From contig CAWGBU010000002.1 in NCBI GenBank assembly GCA_963820905.1, positions 366,144-430,143 of the forward strand: a DNA stretch of 64,000 bases, written 5' to 3'. Positions 6,205 through 42,247 of the stretch are shown here, piece after piece. A program made the position numbers and the translations under genes. The DNA is from an uncultured Acidobacteriota bacterium (GTDB taxonomy: Bacteria > Acidobacteriota > Vicinamibacteria > Vicinamibacterales > 2-12-FULL-66-21). The notes below the pieces were generated by a model. The model saw only the letters and a program-made list of their open reading frames with translations, had not been told where the DNA came from and made no database searches. Within the stretch, counting starts at the first letter, position 1; every line of letters begins with the position of its first letter.

Positions 6205-8874
6205 ATGCGCACCCTACTCCGGCGCATCGGATACTGGCTCCGGCACCGCCGGCACGAGGCGGACCTGTCGGAGGAGATCGAAAGCCATCGCGCGATGATG
6301 CAGGCGCGGCTCGAGGCGTCGGGGCTCTCGAGCGACGCGGCGCGCGACGAGAGCCGGCGGTCGCTTGGCAACATCACGCTCGCGCGCGAGGACGCGCGGT
6401 CGGTGTGGCTGTGGCCGTGGCTCGACGCGGTCCGGCAGGATACGTCGTACGCGCTGCGGGCGCTCCGGCGCAATCCCGGGTTCGCCTGCGCGGTGATCCT
6501 CGTGACGTCGCTCGGCATCGGCGCGACGACGAGCGTGTTCGGGATGCTCGACGCGCTGGTGCTCAGGCCGCTGCCGGTGCGCGAGCCTCACAGGCTCGTG
6601 TACTTCGAAAGCCCCTCGTTCTCCTACCCCGTGTTCATGGAAGTCCGGAAGCACGGAACGGAGATCTTCAGCGGCGTGTCCGCGTGGTCGCTCGAATCGG
6701 CCCATGTCGACTGGAACGGTGAGCTAGAGCCGGTGGAGATCCTCACGGCGTCCGGCGACTTCTACGAGACGCTCGGCATCGGCGCCGCGATCGGCCGGAC
6801 GTTCACGCCGGCCGACGATCGGGTCGGCGGCGGGCCGGACGGCGCCGTCGCGGTTCTGAGCCATGCGGCGTGGCAGCGACGGTTCGGCGGGGATCCGTCG
6901 ATCGTCGGGCGCACGGTCCGCATCGATCGGCGGCCCTTCACCATCATCGGCGTGTCGCCGCGCGGCTTCTTCGGCGTCGCGGCCGGACTCGCGCCGGACC
7001 TCACGATCCCGATCACCGCGCTCCAGAGCGAGAAGGCGCTCGAACAGACGACCTCGGCGTGGATGCACTTCATCTGCCGGCTGCGCGACGGCCTCGGCCA
7101 CGACCAGGCGAACGCGATGCTGGTGCGGGTGTGGCCCCGGATCCTCGAGGTCACGACGAACCCGGGCATGCCGGCGGATCGACGCGCGCACTACCTGGGA
7201 CGGCAGACGTCTCTCGTTCCCGGCTACGCGGGCTTCTCGCGCGTGCGGAACCAGTTCGCCGATCCGCTGTGGATGCTGCTCGGCCTCACGGGGCTCCTCT
7301 TCACGATCGCCTGCGCGAGCGCCGCGAACCTGCTGCTCGCGCGCGGCGTCGAGCGCCAGCGCGAGATCGCCGTGCGCCTCGCGATCGGCGCCAGCCGCGG
7401 ACGCCTGGTCCGCCAGTTCATCACCGAATCCGTCGTCTGGACCGTGCTCGGCGCGGCCGCCGGCCTGGTCTTCGCGTCGTGGACCGGCAACCTGCTGGTC
7501 GCGATGCTCAGGAACCGCGACAACCCGATCGATCTGGATCTGGGCCCGAACTGGCGCATCACGCTTTTCGTGCTCGGCCTGACGTTCGTCACGGTAGGCG
7601 TCTGCTCGATCCTCCCCGCTCTTCGGGCAACGCGCCTTGCGCCAGCGCCGGCGCTCAGGTCGACGGCCGGCGGGGCGTCTTCGCACTTCCGACGGTGGTC
7701 GGTAGGAAAGACGCTCGTCGCCGCGCAAGTCGCGCTGACGCTCGTCCTGCTCGTCGGCGGCGCGCTCTTCGTGCGGAGCCTGTCGCGCGTGCTGAACCAG
7801 CATGCCGGCTTCGATCGCCACAACCTGCTCGTCGTCTCCACTGACGCGGAAGCGGTTGGATACGAAGGCGATCGCATGGTCGAGTTCTATCGTACGCTGC
7901 ACGGCGCGCTGGCGTCGATCCCCGGCGTCGCCTCGGCGAGCCTGTCGATGTATCCCCCGATCAGCAACGAGGACGGGGCGTGGACGCAGAGCATTGCCGT
8001 GGACGGGACCGCGCTGACGCCGGAGAACACCCGATACGTCTACTTCAACGCGGTGTCGCCGGGCTACTTCGCCACCGTGGGCACTCGCCTCATCCAGGGA
8101 CGCGACTTCACGGCGACTGACGACGAATCGAGCACGAAGGTCGTGATCGTCAACGAGTCCCTCGCGCGGAGATTCTTCCAGGACGCCAACCCGATCGGCC
8201 GGCGGGTCAGCATCGGCCGCGACGCCCGGCGGAGGGATCTCGAGATTGTCGGCATTGCCGGCGATTCGAAGTACCAGCACCTGCAGGAACCGTCGCGATC
8301 GATCGCGTATCTCCCGCTGGCGCAGCAACCCGGCCGCGACAACCTCTTCGTGGAAGTTCGTTCCGCGGTGGCGGCGGCCGCGATCGTCGAACCCGTCCGC
8401 CGCGGAGTGCGCGCCATCGATCGCGCGGTGCCGCTGAGAATCGAACCGATGACCGATCGCATCCGCGAATCCCTGGTGCGCGAACGGGTCCTGGCGATTC
8501 TCGCGACGACTCTCGGATGCGTCGCGCTCGTGCTCGCGTCAGCGGGGTTGTACGGGATCCTCGCCTACGCGGTCTCGCGGCGGACGAAGGAGATCGGGCT
8601 CAGGCTGGCGCTCGGCGCCGGCCGGACGGCCATGATCGCGAGCGTGATGCGGGACTGCCTCCTGCTGACGCTCATCGGCATCGCGATCGGCCTCGCGGGA
8701 TCGCTCGCGCTCGGCCGCTTCGCGCGGTCGCTGCTCTATCAGATCAGCGCGACGGACGCCGGCTCGATCGCGTCCGCCATCCTCCTCATGCTGATCGTCG
8801 CGACCGCCGCTGGTTTCATTCCTGCCCGCCGCGCGTCGCGCGTCGATCCCGTGACCGCGCTGAAGATCGACTGA
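6205..8874 (+). CDS. ADOP-family permease (MacB-like periplasmic domain plus duplicated FtsX domain)
   Basis: Intact 889-aa ORF. The N-terminus (LRHRRHEADLSEEIESH...WLDAVRQDTSYALRALRRNPGFACAVILVTSLGIGATTSVFGMLDALVLRPLP) and two FtsX-type 4-TM blocks are typical of Acidobacterial duplicated orphan permeases, which usually sit next to a PadR regulator. Confidence 0.85.
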   Translation: MRTLLRRIGYWLRHRRHEADLSEEIESHRAMMQARLEASGLSSDAARDESRRSLGNITLAREDARSVWLWPWLDAVRQDTSYALRALRRNPGFACAVILVTSLGIGATTSVFGMLDALVLRPLPVREPHRLVYFESPSFSYPVFMEVRKHGTEIFSGVSAWSLESAHVDWNGELEPVEILTASGDFYETLGIGAAIGRTFTPADDRVGGGPDGAVAVLSHAAWQRRFGGDPSIVGRTVRIDRRPFTIIGVSPRGFFGVAAGLAPDLTIPITALQSEKALEQTTSAWMHFICRLRDGLGHDQANAMLVRVWPRILEVTTNPGMPADRRAHYLGRQTSLVPGYAGFSRVRNQFADPLWMLLGLTGLLFTIACASAANLLLARGVERQREIAVRLAIGASRGRLVRQFITESVVWTVLGAAAGLVFASWTGNLLVAMLRNRDNPIDLDLGPNWRITLFVLGLTFVTVGVCSILPALRATRLAPAPALRSTAGGASSHFRRWSVGKTLVAAQVALTLVLLVGGALFVRSLSRVLNQHAGFDRHNLLVVSTDAEAVGYEGDRMVEFYRTLHGALASIPGVASASLSMYPPISNEDGAWTQSIAVDGTALTPENTRYVYFNAVSPGYFATVGTRLIQGRDFTATDDESSTKVVIVNESLARRFFQDANPIGRRVSIGRDARRRDLEIVGIAGDSKYQHLQEPSRSIAYLPLAQQPGRDNLFVEVRSAVAAAAIVEPVRRGVRAIDRAVPLRIEPMTDRIRESLVRERVLAILATTLGCVALVLASAGLYGILAYAVSRRTKEIGLRLALGAGRTAMIASVMRDCLLLTLIGIAIGLAGSLALGRFARSLLYQISATDAGSIASAILLMLIVATAAGFIPARRASRVDPVTALKID

Positions 8875-8911
8875 GCCTGCGGCGGACTCGCGGACTCGGT
8901 ATCATGTCGTC

Positions 8912-9751
8912 ATGAAATCATTCGCAGGCGTATGCCTTGCCGCGCTGTGGGCGGCGCTCCTCCCGGCACAGGGACCATCCTCCGTCAAGCCGTTCAGGAT
9001 CGTCGGCAACATCTATTACGTCGGCACATCCGATCCGACGGCGTTTCTGATCACGACTCCATCCGGACACATCCTGCTGGACACGACCTACGAGCAGTCC
9101 GCGCCGCTCGTGATGAACAGTATCTCGGCGCTCGGCTTCAAGCTCGAGGACGTCGAGATCATCCTGTCGAGCCACGCGCACCTGGATCACGTCGGCGGCC
9201 ACGCGGCCGTCAAGCGCGCGACGGGCGCGAAGGTCGTGGCGATCGCGGAGGACGCGGTGAACCTCGAGAGCGGAGGAAAGAGAGCGTTCCACCAGATCGG
9301 CTCGTTCGAACCGGTGTCAGTCGACCGCAGGCTGAAGGACGGCGACACGGTCGAGCTCGGCGGCGTGACGCTGACCGCCCATCGCACGCCCGGGCATACC
9401 GAAGGCAACACGGCATGGACGACGACCGTGCTCGACGGCAGCCGGCGCCTCTCCGTCGTCTTCGCGCCGAGCATGTCGATCAACCCGGGGGTGCGCATGG
9501 CGAAGTATCCGCCGTGGCCCACGATCGCCGACGCCTATGCGGCCTCGTTCAAGTTCCTGCGCGGGCTCACGCCCGATGTCTTCCTCGCGCCGCACGCCTC
9601 GTTCTTCGACCTCGAACGGAAGCTGCAGCAGCCGAAGGCCTCGGAGGGTTCCAACCCGTTCATCGATCCGGACGGCTACCGCAGGTTCCTCGACGATCTG
9701 GAAGGCAAGTACCGCGAGCAGCTTCGAAAGGACAGCGCCGGCCTCATGTAG
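8912..9751 (+). CDS. Subclass B3 metallo-beta-lactamase-fold hydrolase, secreted
   Basis: Signal peptide, HAHLDH (the HxHxDH zinc motif) and a downstream GHTEG histidine, about 280 aa. Confidence 0.75.
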   Translation: MKSFAGVCLAALWAALLPAQGPSSVKPFRIVGNIYYVGTSDPTAFLITTPSGHILLDTTYEQSAPLVMNSISALGFKLEDVEIILSSHAHLDHVGGHAAVKRATGAKVVAIAEDAVNLESGGKRAFHQIGSFEPVSVDRRLKDGDTVELGGVTLTAHRTPGHTEGNTAWTTTVLDGSRRLSVVFAPSMSINPGVRMAKYPPWPTIADAYAASFKFLRGLTPDVFLAPHASFFDLERKLQQPKASEGSNPFIDPDGYRRFLDDLEGKYREQLRKDSAGLM

Positions 9752-9836
9752 TGTCCGGCTTGAGCCGGACCACCCCTGGTCCGCCTGAAGGCGGACGCTA
9801 CAGGAATGCAGCTGTAGTGTCCGGCTTCAGCCGGAC
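9748..9836. repeat. Three tandem copies of the REP-like hairpin element between convergent genes
   Basis: tgtagtgtccggcttgagccggac / gtccgcctgaaggcggacgctacag / ctgtagtgtccggcttcagccggac. Confidence 0.8.
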
Positions 9837-9837
9837 C

Positions 9838-10551
9838 TCACTGCTGCGCTGGCTTCGCTGCCCCCGAAGCAGGCGCGGCACCGCCGCGCTGCCGTCCCGA
9901 AACGATCATGACGACGATCGCAATCACCACCAGGATCCCTCCGGCGGCCACGACGCGCCCGGGGATCAACTCGAAGATGCGCGCGGCGAAGTACGCCTGC
10001 AGGTAGCAGAGCGGCGCCATGCCGACGAGCGTGCCGGCCGCGACCTTCCACGCGGGCACGCCCGCGATTCCTGCGGCGTACGACACCAGGTCGGAGGACG
10101 TCAGGGGATTGGCGCGCAGCAGCAGGACGACCCACAACCCGCGGGCCTGAAGCCGTTCGCGATAGCGGCCGATCTCACCAGCGCTCGCGGCGCCAAACAG
10201 GCGCTCGCCGATCGCTCCGCCGAGCAGGCAGCTGATCGCGGCGCCGATCACGTTGCCGATGAGCGACAGCGTCCCGCCGAGAAAGCCGCCGAAGATCGCG
10301 CCGCCGGGCGCATACAGCAGCGTGCCGGGGATCGGCGCGACGACGACTTCGACGACAACGATGGCGGTGTAGACGACGGGCGCGAACGGGCCCCAGGACG
10401 CGACGGCGGCGCGCAGACGATCCAGCCACGGGCCCTGATCCGGCGTGCCGGTGACCAGCACGTAGACGAGGCCTTCCGTCGCATACGACAGGACGGCCCA
10501 TCCGATCAGGACGACGAGGACGATGAGGAGGGCGAGCGAGCCACGGCGCAC
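9838..10551 (-). CDS. TVP38/TMEM64 (DedA-related) family membrane protein
   Basis: 237-aa polytopic membrane protein with the glycine-rich conserved core of the TVP38/SNARE-associated family. Confidence 0.6.
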   Translation of the reverse strand: MRRGSLALLIVLVVLIGWAVLSYATEGLVYVLVTGTPDQGPWLDRLRAAVASWGPFAPVVYTAIVVVEVVVAPIPGTLLYAPGGAIFGGFLGGTLSLIGNVIGAAISCLLGGAIGERLFGAASAGEIGRYRERLQARGLWVVLLLRANPLTSSDLVSYAAGIAGVPAWKVAAGTLVGMAPLCYLQAYFAARIFELIPGRVVAAGGILVVIAIVVMIVSGRQRGGAAPASGAAKPAQQ

Positions 10552-31012: not shown

Positions 31013-32989
31013 GTGATATTCGACGCTGGACCATCCTCTCTCTTGATTGCAGCGGCAGTGGTCTCGGTCATGCTTCTGCACTCAATCTACAGCATCGGTC
31101 CCGCGCAGGTCGGACTGGTCCGGAAGCGATTCGGAGCCAAGCTCCCAGGCGACAATCCACTGGCGTTTCGCGGGGAAGCCGGGTACCAAGCGCAATTGCT
31201 CATGCCCGGCCTCCGTTTCAAATTCGGCCTGGTGTTCTCCGTGACGAAGCATCCCTGGGTGCAGGTCCCTGCGGGTCAAATCGGCGTGGTGATTGCCCAG
31301 GTTGGACAGCCGCTGCCCATCGGCGCAAAGTCGGCGGTGTACAAACCAGAGTTTGGCAATTTCAGCGACCTGAACACGTTCATCGAACAAGGCGGTCAAA
31401 AGGGCGTGCAGAGACCGGTGCTGTCTCCTGGCACGCTGGCCCCGATTCATCCCGTCGCCTTCCTGGTGATTACCAAGCCGGAAGTCTTCGGCCAACCGAT
31501 TTCTACCGACCTCAGCGCGTTGGCTCAGAAGAAGGGCGCGCTGACATACGCGGAGTTCGGGCTCGAAGAACGGCAGCTCGAAGTCACACGGATTTCACCG
31601 TATCCAACCGAGGCTGGACGAGTCCTCGACATGGTTGGTGTCGTCACCACCTTGGAAGGCGAGCCACTGCCTGCAGGTGATATTGCGAGCCGTCTGGGCG
31701 GATTCAGGGATATCGAAGCGTTGGAGGCGGACCCCGGCGCGAGCTCCGCTACGGATGCGCGACTCATCGAGACCATTCTGGGCAACCAGAACGACCGGCA
31801 CAGCGCCTACCAGGACTTTCAGAAATTCCTGCAATTGGGCGGCAAGATCGGACTGCAGCACGATCCGCTGCTGTATGGCGCCTACAACCTCAACCCGTTC
31901 CTGGTCCGCGTGGAAGAAGTGCCCATGCTCGTCGTCGAGCAGGGTCAGGTCGCCGTCATGAAGGCGTACGTCGGTCTGCCGACGCAGGATACGTCCGGTG
32001 TTGAGTTCAAGTTCGGCAGCCTCGTGCGGCCCGGTCATCGCGGCATCTGGCAGGAGCCGCTGCGAACCGGAAAATACCCGATCAATCCTCGCTGTTACCA
32101 GGCCGTCATCGTGCCAACGTTCATCATCACGCTGAACTGGGCCGATGTGGTATCGCAGGCTCACAATCTCGATGCGCAACTGAAGCAGATTGAGGCGAAG
32201 AGCAGTGAAGGGTTTCACTTTGCCATCGATCTGCAGGTGCAGATTCACATTCCAGACACCCAGGCTCCGTATGTCATCTCGATGGTCGGGAGCGTGGCGA
32301 ACCTCGTCAACGAGGTGCTGCAGGCTGCGGTCGGCAATCATTTCCGGAACAAGCTGCAAAGCATGCCCGCGGTCAGCTTCATCGCCACCAGGGAAGCGGT
32401 CCAGCAAGGGGCATTCGAGTACGTCAAAGAGGAACTGGCGAAGTATCGGGTCGAAACGCGCGGCGTGTACATCCAGGCAGTGGTGCTGCCAGAGCAGCTG
32501 GTTGGCGTGTTGACGGAGCGGGAAATCGCCAATCAGCAAATCGCCACCTACAAGATGCAGCAATCGGCGCAGGACCAGCGGACGGAAACCGAAAAGGCCA
32601 AAGGCACCGCGGATATGCAGGCGGACCTGGCGAAATCCCAGGTGGGTGTGGACATCCAGACCAACCGGACCGCGGCCCGGAAAATGGAGGCCCAGGGAGA
32701 GGCGGCCTTTATCGAGCAGACCGGCGCAGCCCAGGGCGCGCAGGTCAAATCGATCGGCCTGGCCCGGGCCGAAGCCTACGAGCGACAGGTTGCCGCGCTC
32801 GGAGCGAACGCGACAGCACTCGTGAACGCCGTCGAAGCTCTCTCGAAGAGCAATGTGCCGTTCATGCCGAACACCCTCGTCATGGGTGGCAGTGATGGGA
32901 GCGGCACGCTCGGAGGAGTGATGGCGCTCTTGATGCGCCAGATCGACGCCGGGCTGGCCCGGAGGCCAGCGCCGCCGCCGCTGCCCTAG
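31013..32989 (+). CDS. SPFH/band-7 (flotillin-like) membrane protein
   Basis: The GTG start is preceded by AAGGAG. An N-terminal TM helix leads into the SPFH core (IGPAQVGLVRKRFG...) and a long C-terminal coiled coil with flotillin-like EA repeats. 658 aa. Confidence 0.75.
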   Translation: MIFDAGPSSLLIAAAVVSVMLLHSIYSIGPAQVGLVRKRFGAKLPGDNPLAFRGEAGYQAQLLMPGLRFKFGLVFSVTKHPWVQVPAGQIGVVIAQVGQPLPIGAKSAVYKPEFGNFSDLNTFIEQGGQKGVQRPVLSPGTLAPIHPVAFLVITKPEVFGQPISTDLSALAQKKGALTYAEFGLEERQLEVTRISPYPTEAGRVLDMVGVVTTLEGEPLPAGDIASRLGGFRDIEALEADPGASSATDARLIETILGNQNDRHSAYQDFQKFLQLGGKIGLQHDPLLYGAYNLNPFLVRVEEVPMLVVEQGQVAVMKAYVGLPTQDTSGVEFKFGSLVRPGHRGIWQEPLRTGKYPINPRCYQAVIVPTFIITLNWADVVSQAHNLDAQLKQIEAKSSEGFHFAIDLQVQIHIPDTQAPYVISMVGSVANLVNEVLQAAVGNHFRNKLQSMPAVSFIATREAVQQGAFEYVKEELAKYRVETRGVYIQAVVLPEQLVGVLTEREIANQQIATYKMQQSAQDQRTETEKAKGTADMQADLAKSQVGVDIQTNRTAARKMEAQGEAAFIEQTGAAQGAQVKSIGLARAEAYERQVAALGANATALVNAVEALSKSNVPFMPNTLVMGGSDGSGTLGGVMALLMRQIDAGLARRPAPPPLP

Positions 32990-33076
32990 CACTCGAGTCG
33001 TCGCTGCGCAAGAAAGTCATAAAGAGTCAGTAAAAACTCCAGCTACGCGCGCGCATCGCTCTCAGCCGATGCCAGA

Positions 33077-34606
33077 ATGGCGGTAGAGCCAACCATGGAC
33101 CGCCACGCCACAACCCGGGATGCGATCGCGCTCCTCCTCAGCATCGGCGTGCTTGGTCTGGCAGTAGCCCTTCTCAGGATGCTGCCCGATGTCAGCGCGA
33201 CGACCGTCGCGCTGGCGCTGCTGCTGGTTGTCCTCGGCACCGCAACCAACGCACGCCTGGCCGTCGCGATCGTCGTATCCGTTGTGGCAATGCTGGCGTT
33301 CAATTTCTTCTTTCTTCCTCCCATTGGAACGTTGACCATTGCGAACCCGCAGAACTGGGTGGCGTTGTTCGCGTTTCTGACCGTGTCCGTCATCGCCAGC
33401 AATCTCTCGGCCGCTGCCAGGGACCGGGAGCGTGAGGCCATCGCTCGCGGCAACGAAGTCACGCGCTTGTTCGACCTGACACGAGATGTCCTGCTGACCA
33501 CGGAGACCGCCACGGCCATGGACATCATCGCTCGCCAGGTCGCGCGCCGTTTCGAGCTGACCACGGTGGCGATCGCCCTTCCCGCCGACCATGGATGGCG
33601 CGTGTATCAGGGGGGGAGCAGCGACGTGGCCATCGACGAGGCCGTCCTGAATACTGCGCTCGCGAAGGCGCGAGGGACGCTGGAGTTCGACGCGCACCAG
33701 CGCGCCTATGGCGGACACGTGCAGATCGGCGACGCCCAGACCGGCCTGAAAATCGTGCCGCTGCGCCACGGTGTGAAGGCCATGGGCCTGCTCGCGGCGG
33801 GCGCGTCGGATCTCGATATCGGCACGCTGGATGCGCTTGGCGGCGTCGTCGCGATTGCCATCGAGCGCACGCAGTTTCTCGGCGAGCGTGACGCCGCGGA
33901 GCGCGTTCGGCAGAAGGCGGATCTTGCAGCGACGCTTCTGGCGTCCTTGAGCCACGACCTCAGGACGCCGCTGACGGCGGCCCGGGTCGCCGTCGAGAAC
34001 CTTCGCGGCGAGCTGACGGCTGACGAACGCAAGGCGCAGACCGACCTCGCGGCTGCGGAGCTCGGCCGCCTGTCGCGTCTCTTCCAGGACATCCTGGACA
34101 TGGCGCGAGTGGATGCCTCCGCGATCCTGATCGAGCGGCAGTGGGTCACGCCGGCGGAAGTCATCGATGCCGCCATGGCCCACGTGCGTCACACGCTCAC
34201 CGGGCGAACGGTCAACGTGGATGCCGATGGCGAGATGGTCGTTGAAATCGATCCCCGGCTGGCGTCCGGGGCGCTCTCCCACCTGCTCGAGAACGCCGCG
34301 CAATATTCGCCGGCCGACCGCAGCATCGACGTCGTCGGCCGCGCCGAGCCCGACGGGCTGCGCGTGTCAGTCGTCGACCAAGGACCGGGGTTGGATCCAG
34401 GCGAGCTCGATCACCTCTTCGAGCGGTTCTATCGCGGTCGGGCTGCGCGGCAACTGTCGCCAGGAACGGGAATGGGACTCGCGATCAGTCGTGGGCTGCT
34501 GGCCGCCGCCGGGGGCCGGGTCTGGGCCGAGAACGTGCCTGGCGCGGGCGCCAGGTTCTCGATGGTCGTGCCCGGGGCCATCCGCCGCGTCGTGGAGGAG
34601 CGCTGA
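33077..34606 (+). CDS. kdpD: Sensor histidine kinase matching the C-terminal half of KdpD (4-TM, GAF-like, HisKA, HATPase_c); the N-terminal KdpD/Usp domains are absent
   Basis: KdpD-type TM region (AFNFFFLPPIGTLTIANPQNW), H-box LSHDLRTPLTA, and N/G boxes (LLENAAQYSP, GTGMGLAISRGL). Confidence 0.85.
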   Translation: MAVEPTMDRHATTRDAIALLLSIGVLGLAVALLRMLPDVSATTVALALLLVVLGTATNARLAVAIVVSVVAMLAFNFFFLPPIGTLTIANPQNWVALFAFLTVSVIASNLSAAARDREREAIARGNEVTRLFDLTRDVLLTTETATAMDIIARQVARRFELTTVAIALPADHGWRVYQGGSSDVAIDEAVLNTALAKARGTLEFDAHQRAYGGHVQIGDAQTGLKIVPLRHGVKAMGLLAAGASDLDIGTLDALGGVVAIAIERTQFLGERDAAERVRQKADLAATLLASLSHDLRTPLTAARVAVENLRGELTADERKAQTDLAAAELGRLSRLFQDILDMARVDASAILIERQWVTPAEVIDAAMAHVRHTLTGRTVNVDADGEMVVEIDPRLASGALSHLLENAAQYSPADRSIDVVGRAEPDGLRVSVVDQGPGLDPGELDHLFERFYRGRAARQLSPGTGMGLAISRGLLAAAGGRVWAENVPGAGARFSMVVPGAIRRVVEER

Positions 34607-35287
34607 GTGGCCGACCGCATCCTCGTCGTCGACGACGAGCCGAACATCCTGGCGACCATCACGCCGCTGCTCTGCGGCCGCGGGTACGACGTGCTGACCG
34701 CGATGACCGGACACGCGGCACTCGAAGCCGTGCACCGGGACGCGCCGGACCTCGTTATCCTGGACCTCGGACTGCCGGACCTCGACGGGGTCGAGGTCTG
34801 CACTCGGATTCGCGAGAGCCGCACCACCCCGATCGTCGTGTTGTCGGCGCGCGGCGGCGAGAACGACAAGGTACGGGCGCTCGATGCCGGCGCCGACGAC
34901 TACGTCACCAAGCCGTTCGGAACGGAGGAGCTCCTCGCGCGCGTGCGCGTGGCGCTGAGACGGATCGACACGGCACAGTCGAACGAGCCGATCGTGCGCG
35001 GCAAGCTGGTGATCGACCGGGAGCGCTTCCGGGTGCTCACCGACGGCAAGGAGGTCAGGCTCACGCCGAAGGAATTCGAGCTGCTGACCTATCTGGCGCA
35101 GCGGCCGGGGCGTGTCGTCACCCATCGCGCGATTCTGCGGGCCATCTGGGGGCCACAAGCGCTGAACCAGCCAGAACACCTGCGGGTCCTCGTCGGGTCG
35201 CTTCGACGGAAGATCGAACCCAATCCCTCTGCGCCGCAGTACATCCTCACGGAGCCATGGGTTGGCTATCGATTCATGGACGCGTGA
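34607..35287 (+). CDS. kdpE: OmpR-family response regulator KdpE
   Basis: The GTG start comes immediately after the kinase stop. REC (ILVVDDEPNIL...LDLGLPDLDG) plus the winged-helix Trans_reg_C (LTPKEFELLTYLAQRPGRVVTHRAIL...VGYRF). Confidence 0.85.
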   Translation: MADRILVVDDEPNILATITPLLCGRGYDVLTAMTGHAALEAVHRDAPDLVILDLGLPDLDGVEVCTRIRESRTTPIVVLSARGGENDKVRALDAGADDYVTKPFGTEELLARVRVALRRIDTAQSNEPIVRGKLVIDRERFRVLTDGKEVRLTPKEFELLTYLAQRPGRVVTHRAILRAIWGPQALNQPEHLRVLVGSLRRKIEPNPSAPQYILTEPWVGYRFMDA

Positions 35288-35328
35288 CCGTGCCGGGGCG
35301 CGTGGCGAGACTTATCGCGCTGCCTGCG

Positions 35329-36477
35329 TCACGCGCCCGGCTCACCAAGCGGCACGACTTGCACGGCAGCGTCTCGAACCTCTTCCAGAAATCGGTTCAA
35401 GGTCGATCCCTTCAACAGAATCTCCCATCGCGTACGAGCGCTCTGCCCGAAGATGACATGGGTAATGCCTTCGCGCTTGGCAAAGGCGATCAGACCGTCA
35501 GCGGGCTTGTCGGCTTTCACGCGCACGATCGTGGCTCCGAGATCCTTCGCCAGGGCGATGTTACGCTCCAACGCCTGCTGATCCGTGCGCTTGATGTGGC
35601 CGGGTGCCTCTCGCGGTGTTTCGACGTAAACCGCGTACCAGTGCGCGCCCAGCCGGCCGGCGATGCGCGCCCCGGCGCGAAGCACCCGCGGAGCATCGGC
35701 GCTCGAGCTCACGCACACCATCACTCGTTCAGGAATCAGCGCCGGCTCGAGACCCTCGCGCTGGCGATGCGACGCCGCTTTCTCGCCGATCTCGTCGGCA
35801 ACCGCACGCAAGGCCAGCTCGCGCAGCGTCGAGAGATTCGTCTCCCTGAAGAAATTCGTCAGCGCCTGCTCGACCTTTTCCGGCTTGTACACCTTTCCCT
35901 GTCGTAACCGGGTCTGGAGCTCCTGCACGGTCACGTCCACGTTGACGACTTCGTCGGCGCGATCGAGAAACGTGTCGGGCACGGTCTCGCGCACGCGGAC
36001 GCCGGTCACACGGCTCACCGCGTCGTTCAGCGTCTCCAGGTGCTGAATGTTGACGGCTGTCAGGACACCGATGCCGGCGTCGAGCAGGTCGAGCACGTCC
36101 TGATATCGCTTCTCGTGTCGTCCGCCCGGCGCGTTCGTGTGCGCCAGCTCGTCGACCACGGTGAGCTGCGGCTTCCTGGCAAGGATCGCCTCCAGATCCA
36201 TCTCTTCGAGGATCACGCCCCGGTACTCGACGCGCCGCCTCGGGATGATCGGCAGATCCTGCAGCCGCGCTTCCGTATCGGCGCGGCCGTGCGTCTCGAC
36301 GAAGCCGACCACGACATCGACGCCCTCCAGACGGAAGGCATGGGCGTCTTCGATCATTGAATAGGTCTTGCCAACGCCGGGGGCAGCACCGATGTAGATG
36401 CGGAGGCGCGCACGCTCTGCGGTCTGCAGCTTCGCCAATGCCTGCTCGCCCGTGATGCGGGTGGGATCCGACACCAA
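35329..36477 (-). CDS. Stand-alone KdpD N-terminal sensor domain protein (KdpD domain with P-loop, plus a Usp domain)
   Basis: RIYIGAAPGVGKTYSMIEDAHAFRLEGVDVVVGFVETHGRADTEA...VDELAHTN matches the KdpD N-terminal domain. A Usp-like C-terminus follows. There are no TM or kinase domains. Confidence 0.8.
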   Translation of the reverse strand: MVSDPTRITGEQALAKLQTAERARLRIYIGAAPGVGKTYSMIEDAHAFRLEGVDVVVGFVETHGRADTEARLQDLPIIPRRRVEYRGVILEEMDLEAILARKPQLTVVDELAHTNAPGGRHEKRYQDVLDLLDAGIGVLTAVNIQHLETLNDAVSRVTGVRVRETVPDTFLDRADEVVNVDVTVQELQTRLRQGKVYKPEKVEQALTNFFRETNLSTLRELALRAVADEIGEKAASHRQREGLEPALIPERVMVCVSSSADAPRVLRAGARIAGRLGAHWYAVYVETPREAPGHIKRTDQQALERNIALAKDLGATIVRVKADKPADGLIAFAKREGITHVIFGQSARTRWEILLKGSTLNRFLEEVRDAAVQVVPLGEPGA

Positions 36478-36500
36478 GGCATCGTAGCGCGAGCGTAGCG

Positions 36501-36586
36501 GCGAGCTGCGGCTCTTTATGAACTCTTTACGACTTTTCGAGACGGTCCTTACGCCTTTATGAATTCTTTAGCGACTCTTGATGCTC
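36501..36586. promoter_or_regulatory. Seven to eight direct TTTA-containing repeats at 11-bp periodicity in the divergent kdp promoter region; candidate KdpE operator
   Basis: ctctttatgaa ctctttacgac ttttcgagacg gtccttacgcc tttatgaattc tttagcgactc ttgatgctctt cttacgg. It is a locally AT-rich island. Confidence 0.4.
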
Positions 36587-36633
36587 TTCTTACGGCCAGG
36601 CGCCCTATGCTCGAGACGAAAGGCAGGTTCCCG

Positions 36634-36723
36634 TGCTGGATGTTGTCTTCGTCGCTGTGTCCCTGGTGTTCTTTGCCGTCGCCGTAGGCTACGTGTCGCT
36701 GTGCGACCGGCTGATGAAGTGAG
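36634..36723 (+). CDS. Small hydrophobic peptide (29 aa) immediately upstream of kdpF; second KdpF-like peptide or leader peptide
   Basis: GTG-start ORF VLDVVFVAVSLVFFAVAVGYVSLCDRLMK-stop; a single TM helix. Confidence 0.3.
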
Positions 36724-36729
36724 CGCGCT

Positions 36730-36819
36730 ATGAGTCTCGATTACCTCGTCGGATTGGTCGTGAGCCTGGCCCTGCTGGCGTACCTCGTGCTCGCCATGAT
36801 GAAGCCGGAGAAGTTCTGA
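36730..36819 (+). CDS. kdpF: K+-transporting ATPase subunit F (KdpF)
   Basis: MSLDYLVGLVVSLALLAYLVLAMMKPEKF-stop. 29 aa, single TM, ending 1 nt before the kdpA ATG. Confidence 0.6.
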   Translation: MSLDYLVGLVVSLALLAYLVLAMMKPEKF

Positions 36820-36820
36820 C

Positions 36821-38602
36821 ATGACTGCGAATGGCTGGTTGCAAATCGTCGTGTTTCTTCTGGCTGTCCTTGCCGTGACACCGCTGCTGGGCGGTTTCAT
36901 GGCGCGGGTGTTCTCGCGCCAGAAGACGTTCCTCGACTCGGTCGTGCGGCCCATCGAACGCCTGGTCTACAAGCTGACCGGCGTGGACGAGACGCGCGAG
37001 ATGCGGTGGACGGAGTACGCGGTGGCGGTGCTGATGTTCAGCGTGGTGTCGCTGCTGGTGCTGTACGTCATGCAGCGTATTCAGCACGTCCTGCCGCTCA
37101 ACCCGCAGGGCTTTGGTCCGGTGGCGCCGGACCTGGCGTTCAACACCGCTGTGTCGTTCACCACGAACACGAACTGGCAGGCGTACGGCGGCGAGACGAC
37201 GATGAGCTATTTCACGCAGATGGCCGGGCTCGCCTACCACAACTTCGTCTCGGCCGCGGTCGGCATCGCCGTCGCGATTGCGTTCATCCGCGGCATCGCC
37301 CAGCGCGAAAAGGACACGCTCGGGAACTTCTGGGTCGACATGGTTCGGGCGACGCTGTGGGTGCTGCTGCCGATCTCGATCGTCGGCGCGCTCTTCCTCG
37401 TCTCGCAGGGCGTCGTGCAGAACCTCAAGCCGTACGACAAGGTCGCCGTCGTCGATCCGCAGACCATCAGCTCGACCGGCGCCGACGGCAAGGCGCAGAC
37501 GACGGTCGTCAGCGAACAGACGATCGCGCAGGGACCGGTGGCGTCGCAGGAGATCATCAAGCAGTTCGGGACCAATGGCGGCGGCTTCTTCAATGCCAAC
37601 AGCTCGCATCCATTCGAGAATCCGACACCGCTGACCAATTTCCTCGCGATGTTCGCGATCTTCGCGATCTCGGCCGGTCTCACCTACACACTCGGGTCGA
37701 TGACGGGATCGCGCCGCCACGGCTGGGCAGTCTGGAGCGCGATGGCGTTCCTCTTCGTCGCCGGCGTCTCGGTGGCGTACTGGGCCGAAGCCCGCGGCAA
37801 CCCGATGTTGACCGCCGCCGGCGCCGACCAGGTGGTCTCCGATCAGTCCTCGGGCGGGAACATGGAGGGCAAGGAGGTGCGATTCGGCATCGCCAATACC
37901 GCCCTCTTCGCCACCGTCACCACCGACGCCAGTTGCGGCGCCATCAACGGCTGGCACGACTCGTTCACGCCGCTCGGCGGCCTGGTGCCGCTCGCCAACA
38001 TGCAATTGAGCGAGGTGGTGTTCGGCGGCGTCGGCGCGGGCATGTATGGAATCCTCGTCTACATCATCCTCGCGGTCTTCATCGCCGGCCTGATGGTCGG
38101 GCGGACGCCGGAATACCTGGGTAAGAAGATTCAGGCGTTCGAGGTGCAGATGGCGATGCTGACGGTGCTGATCTTCTCGTTCCTCATCCTGACGTTCACC
38201 GCCATCTCGTCGGTGTCGCCGGACTTCGGCACATCGAGCATCTTCAATCCCGGGCCGCACGGGCTGTCGGAGATGCTCTACGCCTACTCGTCCGCCGGCG
38301 CCAACAACGGCTCGGCCTTCGGCGGCATCAGCGTGAACACCAAGTGGTACAACACGACGCTCGGGCTCACGATGCTCTTCGGGCGCTTCTTCATGATCAT
38401 CCCGCCGCTCGCGATCGCCGGGAGCCTGAGCCGGAAGAAGATCGTGCCCGCGTCGCTCGGCACGTTCCCTGTGACCACACCGCTGTTCACCGCGCTGCTG
38501 GTGGGCGTGATCGTGATCGTCGGAGCGCTCACATTCTTTCCGGTCCTCAGTCTTGGACCCATCGTCGAGCATTTCATCATGCAGGCAGGGCAGGTGTTCT
38601 GA
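36821..38602 (+). CDS. kdpA: K+-transporting ATPase subunit A
   Basis: 593-aa polytopic protein with typical KdpA motifs ([13 protein letters not shown]..., [31 protein letters not shown]). Confidence 0.9.
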
Positions 38603-40692
38603 TGGCGACACAAACCCGTTCACTCTGGGATCCGCAGATCGTGCAGCGCGCCGTAGGGGACGCGTTCCGAAAGCTCCACCCGCGCACGATGGCTCGAAAC
38701 CCGGTGATGTTCGTCGTGCTGGTCGGAAGCGTGCTGACGACGCTGCGCATGGCTCAGACCGTCGTCACCGGCAGCGGCAACATCCTCTTCGAGCTGCAGA
38801 TCACGTTCTGGCTGTGGCTGACGGTGCTGTTCGCCAACTTCGCGGAGGCGATGGCCGAGGGACGCGGCAAAGCGCAAGCCGACACGCTCCGGCGCGCCAG
38901 GACCGAAACGATGGCCAGGCGTGAGCGCGCCGGTGGCACGATTGAGACCGTTCCCGCACCGTCGCTGCGCAAGGGCGACATCGTTCGGGTCGACGCGGGC
39001 GAGGTCATCCCGGCCGACGGCGACGTCATCGAAGGCGTCGCCTCGGTGGACGAGAGCGCCATCACCGGCGAGTCGGCGCCCGTGATCCGCGAATCCGGCG
39101 GCGATCGCTCCGCGGTCACGGGCGGCACGAAAGTGCTGTCGGACTGGATCCGCGTCAAGGTGACGGTGAACCCGGGCGAAACCTTCCTGGATCGCATGAT
39201 CGCGCTGGTCGAGGGTGCCGAGCGGCAGAAAACGCCGAACGAGATCGCCCTCAACATCCTGCTCGCAGGGCTGACGATCGTCTTCCTGATCGCCGTCGTC
39301 ACGCTGCAGCCGTTTGCGATCTACTCGGGCGCTCCGCAATCGCTCTTCGTGCTGGTCTCGCTGCTCGTCTGCCTCATTCCCACGACGATCGGCGGCCTGC
39401 TGTCGGCGATCGGCATCGCGGGGATGGACCGGCTGGTGCAGCACAACGTGCTCGCCATGTCGGGACGAGCGGTCGAAGCCGCCGGAGACGTGCACACCCT
39501 GCTCCTCGACAAGACCGGCACGATCACGCTCGGGAATCGCCAGGCGACGGAGTTCATTCCCCTGTCCGGCGTTGGCGCAGAGACGCTGGCCGACGCGGCG
39601 CAGCTTGCCTCCTTGCCGGATGAGACGCCCGAGGGCCGGTCGATCGTAGTGTTGGCGAAGGAGAAGTACGGCCTCCGAGGCCGCGAGTTCTCACCGCAGC
39701 AGGCGATGTTCGTGCCCTTCACCGCGCAGACGCGAATGTCCGGGATCGATCTCGTGATCCAGCGCAGCGCCGTCGCCGCCGGTGGCGGCCGGTCCTACGG
39801 AGATTCGGATGTACGGGAGATCCGGAAGGGTGCCGCAGAGGCCATCGAGGCGTGGATCCTCTCGAAGGGCGGCAGTGTATCGGAGGAATTGACGGCCGTC
39901 GTGCAGCGTGTCGCTCGCGCCGGAGGAACGCCGCTGGTTGTGGCTGAAGGGCGTCGCGCGCTCGGCGTCATTCATCTCAAGGACATCGTCAAGGGCGGCA
40001 TCCGCGAGCGCTTCGCGCACCTGCGGGCGATGGGGATCAAGACCGTGATGATCACCGGCGACAACCCGCTGACCGCCGCCGCCATCGCGTCCGAGGCCGG
40101 GGTCGACGACTATCTCGCGCAGGCGACCCCGGAAGACAAGATGGCGCTGATCCGGCGTGAGCAGGCGGACGGAAAGCTGGTCGCCATGACCGGCGACGGC
40201 ACCAACGACGCGCCCGCTCTCGCTCAGGCAGATGTCGGCGTGGCGATGAACACCGGCACGCAGGCGGCCAAGGAAGCGGGCAACATGGTCGATCTCGACT
40301 CGAACCCGACCAAGCTGATCGAGGTCGTGGAGATCGGCAAACAGCTGCTCATCACGCGCGGTGCGTTGACGACGTTTTCGATCGCCAACGACGTCGCGAA
40401 GTACTTCGCGATCATTCCCGCGATGTTCCTGGCGACGTTTCCCATGCTGGGTGCGCTGAACATCATGGGGTTGCGGACGCCGGAATCGGCCATCCTGTCG
40501 GCCGTGATCTTCAACGCGCTCGTCATCGTCGCACTCGTGCCCCTCGCATTGCGCGGCATCTCGTACCGCCCCGAGGGAGCCGGTGCACTGCTGCGGCGCA
40601 ACCTCCTCATCTACGGCGTCGGTGGAATCATCGTCCCGTTCATCGGGATCAAGATCATCGACGTGGTCATCACCACGCTTCGACTCGCGTGA
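38602..40692 (+). CDS. kdpB: K+-transporting P-type ATPase subunit B
   Basis: ATG overlaps the kdpA stop. The DKTGTIT phosphorylation motif, TGDN and [11 protein letters not shown]-type ATPase motifs are present. Confidence 0.9.
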
Positions 40693-40723: not shown

Positions 40724-41314
40724 ATGAACGTCATGCGCAATATCGTCACCGCCGCACTGATGACCGTCGTCACCACGCTGCTGCTCGGGATCATCTACCC
40801 GCTCGCCATCACGGGAATCGCGCAGGTGCTGTTCCCGGACAAGGCGAACGGGCAACTGGTGGAGCACAACGGAAAAGTCGTCGCCTCCCGGATCATCGGA
40901 CAGGCGTTCTCCTCGCCCGGGTACTTCCGGTCGAGGCCATCGGCCGCAGGCACTGGCTACGACGCGGCGAACTCGGCGGGCACGCAGCTTGGTCCGACCA
41001 ACAAGAAGCTGGTCGACAACGTCAAGGCGAACGTCGAAACGGCGCGCACGGAGAATGCGACCGCACCGGTCCCCATCGACCTGGTCACCACTTCGGCGTC
41101 GGGGCTCGATCCTCACCTCTCCCCCGCGGCCGCGGACTTCCAGGTCGGACGCGTTGCCCGCGAGCGCGGGGTGTCGGAGTCGGATGTTCGCGCGCTCGTC
41201 GCGTCGCACACCGAAGGACGTCAGCTCGGCTTCCTCGGCGAACCGCGCGTCAAGGTGCTCGAGCTCAACCTCGCGCTCGACGCCGCCCATCCCATGAAGG
41301 CGCCGGGGAAGTAA
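40724..41314 (+). CDS. kdpC: K+-transporting ATPase subunit C
   Basis: MNVMRNIVTAALMTVVTTLLLGIIYPLAITGIAQVLFPDKANGQ... is the canonical KdpC N-terminus. 196 aa. Confidence 0.85.
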   Translation: MNVMRNIVTAALMTVVTTLLLGIIYPLAITGIAQVLFPDKANGQLVEHNGKVVASRIIGQAFSSPGYFRSRPSAAGTGYDAANSAGTQLGPTNKKLVDNVKANVETARTENATAPVPIDLVTTSASGLDPHLSPAAADFQVGRVARERGVSESDVRALVASHTEGRQLGFLGEPRVKVLELNLALDAAHPMKAPGK

Positions 41315-41353
41315 CCGGGTGGACCTATGTGTTCAATTTCTCCGACGATCGTG

Positions 41354-42247
41354 ATGCGGACACGGCATCGTGCTGCACGACGCCTGCCGCGCAGCCTGGT
41401 GGTCGTGGCCATCTCCGCCGCCGTGGTTTCGGCCTGCAATCGCCCGGCACAGCTCACCCAACTGGTCGAAGCACGGCGCGTGGCGTCTGCGCTTCACGTC
41501 CAATTCACGTACGCCGCGGATGCTGCGAACCGGGCGGTCATGGCCGATACCGACGATGCCTCGACGGCCGCGGCCAACGAGGCCCGGCAGGCTAGGCAAG
41601 CTGTCGAACGCCACGTCGAGACGCTTCGGCCCATGCTCGCGTCGCTTGGCTTCAACGACGACCTGAAGCACCTGGACGGGTTCACGTCGCGATTCGACGA
41701 GTACCGGAAGCTCGACGACGAGATCCTGTCATTGGCAGTCCAGAACACCAACCTCAAGGCGCAGCGCTTGTCGTTCGGTCCCGCGCAAGAGGCAGCGGTC
41801 GCCTTTCGCTCGTCGGTCGATGCGGCAGTCAGGAGCAGCACGGCCAAAGATCGCTGCGACGCGTTGACGATCGCGGCGCGAGCGAGTACCGCGCTCCTCG
41901 AAATGCAAGTAATGCAGGCGCCGCATATCGCTGAACCTGATGACGCGGTGATGACGCGTCTCGAAGGCCAGATGACCGCGGCGGCAGCGGTCGCCGGCAA
42001 GTCAGTCGACGAGCTGGGCCGTACCCTTCCGCCGGCCGCGCGCCCTCAGCTCGACGCGGCGCGCGCCGCGCTCTCGCGCTTCATGGCGATCCACGGCGAG
42101 ATCATCACGCTGTCCCGCCGCAACACCAACGTCCGTTCGCTCGCATTGTCGCTCGGCCGAAAACGGGTGCTGACGGCGGCATGTGAGGAGCTGTTGCAAA
42201 CCTTTGAAACCGCGCTCGCGGGGCATGCGTTCAACGCCACGCGCTAG
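41354..42247 (+). CDS. Hypothetical lipoprotein, mostly helical
   Basis: Lipobox-like AAVVSAC after a positively charged N-terminus. It lies 40 nt downstream of kdpC in the same orientation. No domain recognised. Confidence 0.4.
   Translation: MRTRHRAARRLPRSLVVVAISAAVVSACNRPAQLTQLVEARRVASALHVQFTYAADAANRAVMADTDDASTAAANEARQARQAVERHVETLRPMLASLGFNDDLKHLDGFTSRFDEYRKLDDEILSLAVQNTNLKAQRLSFGPAQEAAVAFRSSVDAAVRSSTAKDRCDALTIAARASTALLEMQVMQAPHIAEPDDAVMTRLEGQMTAAAAVAGKSVDELGRTLPPAARPQLDAARAALSRFMAIHGEIITLSRRNTNVRSLALSLGRKRVLTAACEELLQTFETALAGHAFNATR

Follow-up and report, generated by a model that had tools for sequence, protein, structure and literature searches.

The window analysed here is a stretch of 64 kb (64,000 nucleotides) from an uncultured bacterium of the order Vicinamibacterales (phylum Acidobacteriota), and the subject is its kdp locus, which encodes the K+ pump KdpFABC, the response regulator KdpE, and a KdpD divided between two genes. 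One of these encodes a histidine kinase (KdpD-C) that lacks the N-terminal half of KdpD; the other, on the opposite strand, encodes a stand-alone protein made of the KdpD N-terminal domain (KdpD-N) and a Usp domain. The latter is designated ASK below because KdpD-N has been described as an atypical serine kinase (ASK), which phosphorylates Ser162 of KdpB and inhibits the pump (Silberberg et al. 2024, Nat Commun 15:3223; PMC11018627). The genes follow the order HK>kdpE> <ASK / sORF>F>A>B>C>, where HK is the histidine kinase, sORF a small open reading frame (ORF), and the slash the divergent spacer. ASK and kdpFABC form a divergent pair, ASK and kdpE a convergent one; these orientations had been given in a preliminary description of the locus and agree with the ORF map. 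The coordinates of all features are collected in Table 1.

Table 1. Genes and sequence elements of the kdp locus, by position in the window (aa, amino acids; TM, transmembrane)
Feature	Position	Strand	Basis or remark
Box 5′ of the kinase gene, TTTACTGACTCTTTAT; putative KdpE site	33019..33034	-	TTTACT-N5-TTTATG; 43 bp upstream of the kinase ATG
KdpD-C kinase, 509 aa	33077..34606	+	Pfam DUF4118, HisKA, HATPase_c; NCBIfam PRK10490
kdpE, 226 aa, OmpR-family response regulator	34607..35287	+	Pfam Response_reg and Trans_reg_C
GC-rich hairpin over the 41-bp kdpE/ASK gap, overlapping both stop codons	35290..35343		Folding of 35271-35345
KdpD-N and Usp protein (ASK), 382 aa, no TM segment	35329..36477	-	Pfam PF02702, Usp
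Box 1, CTTTATGAACTCTTTAC; putative KdpE site	36514..36530	+	TTTATG-N5-TTTACG at 36515; 37 bp upstream of the ASK start codon
Box 2, CTTTATGAATTCTTTAG; putative KdpE site	36555..36571	+	TTTATG-N5-TTTAGC at 36556; 62 bp upstream of the small ORF preceding kdpF
Hydrophobic peptide, 29 aa, VLDVVFVAVSLVFFAVAVGYVSLCDRLMK, 5′ of kdpF, unannotated	36633..36722	+	Motif conservation, codon pattern
kdpF	36730..36819	+	NCBIfam TIGR02115, 33.2 bits (cut-off 26.85)
kdpA	36821..38602	+	Pfam KdpA, 809.9 bits
kdpB, P-type ATPase subunit	38602..40692	+	Alignment to E. coli KdpB 6hra_B, E=8e-283
kdpC	40724..41314	+	Pfam KdpC, 244.6 bits

A KdpD divided between two chains

Domains were assigned by Pfam and NCBIfam profile searches of the window proteins. 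The 382-aa protein matches PF02702 (KdpD) over residues 22-230 with 315.6 bits and Usp over residues 250-365, and it bears both a Walker A (GAAPGVGKT) and a Walker B (VVDELAHTN) motif, in agreement with the earlier claim that KdpD-N with its P-loop and Usp forms a protein of its own. The stop codon of the ORF lies at 35329-35331, so the chain ends before any TM, GAF, or DHpCA domain. Across 74 stand-alone homologues, the Walker motifs are nearly invariant, including the Asp-Glu of Walker B. The protein finds the PDB entries 2r8r (E=5.3e-74) and 7ji4, the KdpD-USP of S. aureus (E=4e-07), and it is 42% identical to Deinococcus geothermalis KdpD (DgKdpD, Q1J2K3) over 355 aligned positions (query residues 22-375). 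It also aligns with NCBIfam NF038185, the “KdpD-like non-kinase potassium sensor” (432.4 bits, below the curated cut-off; residues 7-375 on positions 3-370 of a 373-position model).

The product of 33077-34606 is a kinase-only KdpD, as had been proposed: Pfam places DUF4118 at residues 20-122, HisKA at 286-347, and HATPase_c at 395-499 and finds neither KdpD-N nor Usp in this product. The protein consists of four TM helices (DUF4118), a GAF-like linker module, DHp, and CA; the phospho-accepting His of DHp lies in the H-box SHDLRTPLT, and the N, G1, F, and G2 boxes are all intact. Its top NCBIfam match is KdpD (PRK10490, model positions 405-883, 197.9 bits), and its top PDB sequence match is the DHp-CA part of E. 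coli KdpD (6lgq_C, E=8.4e-32). The best 120 of more than 7000 homologues are 453-546 aa long, most of them about 500, and all have the same three domains; the name given to them by the Joint Genome Institute (JGI), where the source names any, is “sensor histidine kinase KdpD”. The GAF label in the preliminary description is the part that needs qualification, while TM, HisKA, and HATPase hold. Between TM and DHp, Pfam GAF_2 matches weakly (E=0.11). The AlphaFold model has an alpha/beta module at residues 141-236, before the long DHp helix, with a mean predicted local distance difference test (pLDDT) score of 63.6, i.e., moderate confidence. A Foldseek search with the whole model is dominated by DHp-CA matches, and two bacteriophytochromes align over about 490 columns. 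The label is retained here mainly because the alignment to the KdpD model is contiguous across the linker.

The kinase ORF cannot be extended upstream, since no other start codon lies between 33077 and the preceding stop. An identical database protein begins at Met7 of the ORF, position 33095, which is likely the true start. The start of kdpE abuts the kinase stop codon, and KdpE is the top NCBIfam match of the product (209.3 bits). The same abutting pair is found in L081 and L082, two close relatives compared separately from the set of 80 loci described below.

Aligned to PRK10490, the model of full-length KdpD with its 895 positions, the 382-aa protein takes up 3-360 and the kinase 405-883. 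Because these coverages adjoin, the two proteins tile one KdpD from which a short linker is missing. Every domain of E. coli KdpD is represented in the window, but on two polypeptides encoded on opposite strands.

The split was followed in the best 80 related loci from GTDB contigs of one genome per species (1.14 Mb in total), with Vicinamibacterales nearest, followed by metagenome-assembled genomes (MAGs) of Blastocatellia and Terriglobia. Such a survey of kdp loci had been suggested earlier, and it finds the same split in 78 of the 80: the stand-alone KdpD-N/Usp protein stops where that of the window does. In 72 of those 78 loci the gene adjoins kdp genes, and a KdpD-C/KdpE pair is visible nearby in most. 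One could suppose an artefact or a locus in decay, in which kdpD is broken or wrongly assembled, or in which the two-component system is unrelated and lies beside kdp by chance. Decay or assembly error does occur in the group: in L081 the gene call for the KdpD-N/Usp protein is in two pieces and the pump genes too are broken up, and the locus L001 retains only an N-terminal fragment of the kinase beside ASK. For the window, such an origin is hardly credible, because the two genes lie on opposite strands, as had been argued before against one gene broken by an error, and because of the common end point in 78 of 80 loci. Both genes are full-length with intact catalytic motifs, the best family match of the kinase is KdpD from TM to CA, its homologues keep the same size and domains, and the synteny of the split with kdp genes spans three acidobacterial classes.

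Variant forms are seen in L001 and L050. The ASK of L001 is the closest one in the species collection (92% identical) and belongs to a reduced locus (7478-9991). Besides the ASK gene and the box region in front of it, this locus encodes a homologue of the 306-aa protein described below and, of the kinase, only an N-terminal (TM) fragment; pump genes and kdpE were not found within 8 kb. The KdpD of L050 is fused and full-length, its ORF running 524 aa past Usp, and L049, from the same Blastocatellia MAG, has a stand-alone KdpD-N/Usp protein. Fused and split forms thus coexist in one genome bin.

A split KdpD is in itself well documented. According to the census of Silberberg et al., the division “KdpD/Usp + TM/GAF/DHpCA” is present in 31 of 37 Acidobacteriota species; the authors single out this phylum and Chloroflexota as those where two chains most often carry the two activities (PMC11018627). 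The locus shares with these cases the domain partition, the presence of KdpE, and the phylum, and it keeps the Walker A/B kinase site and the TGES target in KdpB. The finding is therefore correct but ordinary, and it has little weight as a discovery, since the split, its presence in acidobacteria, and the function of the N-terminal half have all been published. That census deals with proteins and has no gene order; what the window adds is a divergent ASK gene with a KdpE-type box of its own, a modest new detail not found in the literature.

Gene order and KdpE-type boxes

Among the 80 loci, ASK lies downstream of the pump and co-directional with it in 51, is divergent from it in 21, and has no pump within the flank in 8. 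The exact order of the window is absent from this set. It is present in L081 (kinase 92% identical) and L082 (86%), save for an insert between kdpE and ASK (L081 12460-14896, L082 12190-15547) that encodes a HAMP-PAS histidine kinase together with a response regulator, in L082 also a methyltransferase. As these two relatives show, the layout is common to a lineage and not private to the window. The common order in Vicinamibacterales is HK>E> <C<B<A<F / ASK>, and inversion of the divergent pump/ASK unit would convert it to that of the window; the gene order is consistent with such an event, and no inverted repeats were found flanking the layout junctions. The preliminary description had called the divergent arrangement less commonly described, which is true of the literature but does not extend to the clade, given the 21 loci and the two relatives.

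Several loci of Blastocatellia and Terriglobia type (L042, L044, L046-L049, L060, L062, L069, and L070) have between kdpC and ASK an extra ORF that resembles only DHp-CA, about 22-28% identical to residues 277-499 of the kinase. Several of them also have a separate KdpD-C/KdpE pair downstream.

Split KdpD is known from cyanobacteria and Deinococcus, as had been noted earlier, and the closest described arrangement is that of D. radiodurans, kdpBAC-kdpD-N with a divergent sensor kinase-response regulator (SK-RR) operon (Dani et al. 2017; PMC5716572). Both systems combine a stand-alone KdpD-N/Usp protein with a separate kinase/response-regulator operon adjoining the pump. In Deinococcus, however, KdpD-N is encoded at the end of the pump operon, from which the SK-RR operon diverges, whereas in the window it is the KdpD-N gene that diverges from the pump, and it converges with the kinase-kdpE operon. 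The two groups differ also in that Deinococcus mostly possesses diadenylate cyclases and most Acidobacteriota do not (PMC11018627). The resemblance to the short KdpD proteins of cyanobacteria and to NF038185 lies in the KdpD-N plus Usp composition, the size of about 370 aa, and the end-to-end alignment. The cyanobacterial genes are situated inside the pump operon (kdpABGCD operons), in contrast to the divergent ASK gene of the window, whose product scores below the NF038185 cut-off.

The three promoter regions of the locus have a sequence element in common. In E. coli, the KdpE sites consist of 6-bp direct repeats, TTTATA and TTTACA, 5 bp apart (PMC3264566), and the half-sites and 11-bp phasing in the window match them. 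A scan for TTTAY-N6-TTTA gives only three sites in 64 kb, all of them at the three kdp promoters. One of the only two exact matches to TTTAY-N6-TTTAY in the window (0.00 expected by chance) is the kinase box, which points the same way as the ASK box when read along the direction of its gene; box 2 is the second exact match to TTTATGANNTCTTTA (0.01 expected by chance). The 155-bp divergent spacer contains CTTTATGAAyTCTTTA twice, in boxes 1 and 2, as a direct repeat with a spacing of 41 bp. These similarities mark the three boxes as putative KdpE binding sites.

The boxes are also conserved. Those upstream of the kinase and of ASK recur in both L081 and L082, and the kdpF-proximal one in L081. 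When the same pattern was scanned in the 1.14 Mb of related loci, 15 of 56 boxes fell within 150 bp 5′ of the ASK start. They are distributed by layout: the ASK gene has such a box in 11 of the 21 divergent loci, in 3 of the 8 loci with no pump in the flank, and in none of the 51 operonic ones, with one-mismatch versions visible in most other divergent loci. It has been argued that the ASK gene, placed downstream of the pump, has its expression secured by read-through (PMC11018627). The distribution of the boxes suggests that an ASK gene outside the operon acquires or keeps a KdpE-type box of its own, by which co-expression with the pump would persist. A private box could in this way replace operon read-through for the joint expression of kinase and pump, which refines the published argument on gene proximity.

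Folding of 35271-35345 gives the hairpin between the converging kdpE and ASK genes, with minimum free energies of -35.7 (+ strand) and -33.7 kcal/mol (- strand); the hairpin has no T-tract and is a candidate bidirectional terminator. A terminator-like match at 36494-36510, the single one in 32900-36900, is within chance expectation. A scan of the window at Rfam gathering thresholds returned only three tRNAs; the kdp locus has no riboswitch (including the c-di-AMP-responsive ydaO type) or other Rfam element, and riboswitch control of kdp at this locus was rejected on this ground.

The role of the stand-alone protein

Two lines of published work bear on what the 382-aa protein may do. The isolated KdpD-N domain suffices for phosphorylation of KdpB in vitro, and DgKdpD, which consists of KdpD/Usp only, phosphorylates KdpB and is stimulated by cyclic di-AMP (c-di-AMP), not by K+ (PMC11018627). 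According to the same census, KdpD/Usp-only proteins for which no histidine-kinase partner chain is listed form the second most common class (922 of 5495 species), and they predominate where KdpE is absent. In E. coli, on the other hand, the separated N-terminal domain of KdpD (residues 1-395) interacts with the C-terminal part, stabilises phosphorylated KdpE (KdpE~P) on DNA, and leads to constitutive expression of kdpFABC, and a KdpD truncated of this domain cannot repress at high K+ (PMC2714519).

The explanation favoured here, which we consider probable, is a two-chain regulation of kdp that combines a membrane KdpD-C/KdpE transcription system, a stand-alone pump-inhibiting serine kinase, and KdpE-type boxes. 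Two activities joined in E. coli KdpD would be represented by two genes in the Vicinamibacterales locus. The membrane protein with its TM, GAF-like, DHp, and CA parts would form, together with KdpE, the two-component system responding to K+ limitation; by homology, the TM/GAF half is expected to sense K+ and KdpE to bind the boxes, through which the system would switch on three units, namely the small ORF-kdpFABC, kinase-kdpE, and the 382-aa gene. ASK would phosphorylate, through its Walker A/B site, the Ser of the TGES motif of KdpB and so turn the pump off post-translationally when K+ is replete. Its gene would not be read through from the pump operon, unlike those of Deinococcus and cyanobacteria, and would be co-expressed through its own KdpE-type box.

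This explanation builds on observations: which domains the genes encode, how their products tile the KdpD model, the conserved motifs, the synteny, and boxes that are both enriched and conserved. The 382-aa protein is read as a pump-inhibiting serine kinase because of its 42% identity to DgKdpD, its near-invariant Walker A/B motifs, and the retention of the target: the segment of KdpB with the equivalents of E. coli Glu161/Ser162 (the TGES motif) is identical to that of E. coli, and DKTGT is likewise kept. On these sequence grounds, a serine-kinase activity of the protein on KdpB is predicted.

Several points weigh against this explanation. With 432.4 bits against a curated cut-off of 550, the 382-aa protein has the architecture of NF038185 but is not a member by threshold. 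The experimental backing for ASK activity comes from proteins outside Acidobacteriota. The soluble ASK has no TM/GAF domains to sense K+, and 29 of the 37 Acidobacteriota species in the census, among them 24 of the 31 with the split, have no annotated diadenylate cyclase (PMC11018627). Since the N-terminal domain of E. coli KdpD acts also on KdpD-C and KdpE, control of the pump may not be the sole role (PMC2714519). At the level of transcription, KdpE bound to box 1 could be a repressor instead of an activator unless the mRNA has next to no leader, and the sign of regulation is uncertain because only 37 bp separate this box from the ASK start codon. A sigma-70-like promoter was not detected in 32900-36900, with a scan that may not suit Acidobacteria.

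A different view, with experimental support from E. coli, takes the 382-aa protein for a sensor or input domain that has become detached and acts mainly in trans on the kinase-only KdpD or on KdpE, and not on the pump, by setting the kinase/phosphatase ratio or by stabilising the KdpE~P-DNA complex. The contacts of the E. coli N-terminal domain with the C-terminal part and its effect on KdpE~P favour it, as does the fact that both halves of KdpD and KdpE are encoded within 3.4 kb; a K+ signal received from the TM/GAF protein would also explain how the soluble half is controlled in a phylum mostly devoid of diadenylate cyclases. Nevertheless, there is no need for an in-trans role: KdpD/Usp-only proteins abound in species that lack KdpE, so that their conserved function needs no kinase partner. 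The sufficiency of isolated KdpD-N for KdpB phosphorylation in vitro and the near-invariance of the Walker B Asp-Glu, which is needed for serine phosphorylation, tell against it too, and we regard action mainly in trans as rather unlikely. The earlier statement made contact in trans between the N-terminal fragment and the kinase obligatory; given an autonomous ASK, current evidence does not demand this, and what can be kept of it is a possible additional role of the kind seen in E. coli. A second alternative leaves the serine kinase autonomous and concerns its signal: the protein would be controlled by c-di-AMP at Usp, with K+ sensing delegated to a diadenylate cyclase. DgKdpD provides the precedent. 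The consensus of c-di-AMP-binding KdpD-USP domains in Firmicutes is (A/G/C)-x-S-x-S-x2-N-(Y/F) (Dutta et al. 2021; PMC8214093), and the Usp of the window, with C-V-S-S-S-A-D-A and an aligned Tyr, has four of its five residues. The missing one is the c-di-AMP-specific Asn249, replaced by Ala. The consensus is not diagnostic outside Firmicutes, since DgKdpD is stimulated by c-di-AMP without having it, and it was dropped as a predictor for this reason. Against such control stand the replaced Asn, the scarcity of annotated diadenylate cyclases in Acidobacteriota with the split, and the lack, in the 64-kb window, of a ydaO riboswitch and of a cyclase motif; the latter was sought as a regular expression for the RHR motif in the six-frame translation of the window, which says nothing of the rest of the genome. 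Control by c-di-AMP is possible, if on balance unlikely.

Returning to the pump-inhibiting serine kinase, what activates it in Acidobacteriota deserves a more specific, tentative suggestion. In the window, an intramolecular K+ signal from TM/GAF to the soluble half, as in the relay proposed for E. coli, is not possible. The ASK, co-induced by KdpE from its own box, might be activated at high K+ through contact in trans with the TM/GAF chain or through another nucleotide bound at Usp, though the odds are not in favour of this particular combination. Usp domains of KdpD are said to lack the ATP-binding USP motif G-x2-G-x9-G-(S/T) (PMC8214093). The window Usp has at residues about 342-357 of the protein the segment G-Q-S-A-x9-G-S, i.e., three of the four key residues of this motif, and the segment is conserved in 74 homologues. 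Were the suggestion true, the locus would represent a natural two-chain version of the E. coli relay. Acidobacteriota, in which the split is the norm and diadenylate cyclases are mostly absent, offer a natural system for asking what activates the KdpD serine kinase.

The pump operon, a small peptide, and neighbouring genes

The kdpB ATG at 38602 overlaps the kdpA stop codon, and the start of kdpC was set at the ATG at 40724, ahead of a TM helix. Upstream of kdpF lies the unannotated ORF of 29 aa, for a conserved hydrophobic membrane peptide. Of 81 sequences from Vicinamibacteria, Blastocatellia, and Terriglobia, 42 contain a single instance of the peptide motif D-hhh..FF..YVxxC[DE][RK][LV], placed as in the window ahead of kdpF/kdpA. 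Differences at codon positions 1, 2, and 3 amount to 0.40, 0.26, and 0.59, and the in-frame share of synonymous changes is about 3-5 times that of the shifted frames; these substitution patterns indicate that the ORF is coding. An exhaustive search of representative sequences gave 64 clusters matching at E<=0.001, in most of which the match is the C-terminus of a gene call that is too long; in L082 the ORF is not called as a gene. The peptide matches no Pfam or NCBIfam family, and nothing relevant was found in the literature on a second small peptide 5′ of kdpF. The pump operon probably begins with this ORF, whose product may be an extra Kdp subunit, an accessory component of the pump, or a regulatory peptide.

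The gene directly 3′ of kdpC, at 41327-42247 (+), has a product of 306 aa whose N-terminus resembles that of a lipoprotein (…VVSAC) and which matches 4HB_MCP_1 weakly (E=1.6e-4, below the cut-off). Homologues 43-58% identical to it adjoin kdp genes in 11 of the 80 loci, in varying position and orientation, and the protein may be an accessory one associated with kdp.

A second type of pump, with the order kdpA-kdpC-kdpB, is encoded in L005, L012, L021, L027, L030, L038, L040, L041, and other loci. Compared with the window, its KdpA is only about 43% identical and its KdpB about 73%.

Upstream of the kinase, the window encodes at 31013-32989 a Band_7/SPFH protein that is 93% identical to the product of 9213-11177 in L023. 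In that locus, the Band_7/SPFH gene lies directly downstream of an ASK gene of operonic layout, whose product is only 74% identical to that of the window. This comparison points to a kdp module that has been rearranged or exchanged among related genomes.

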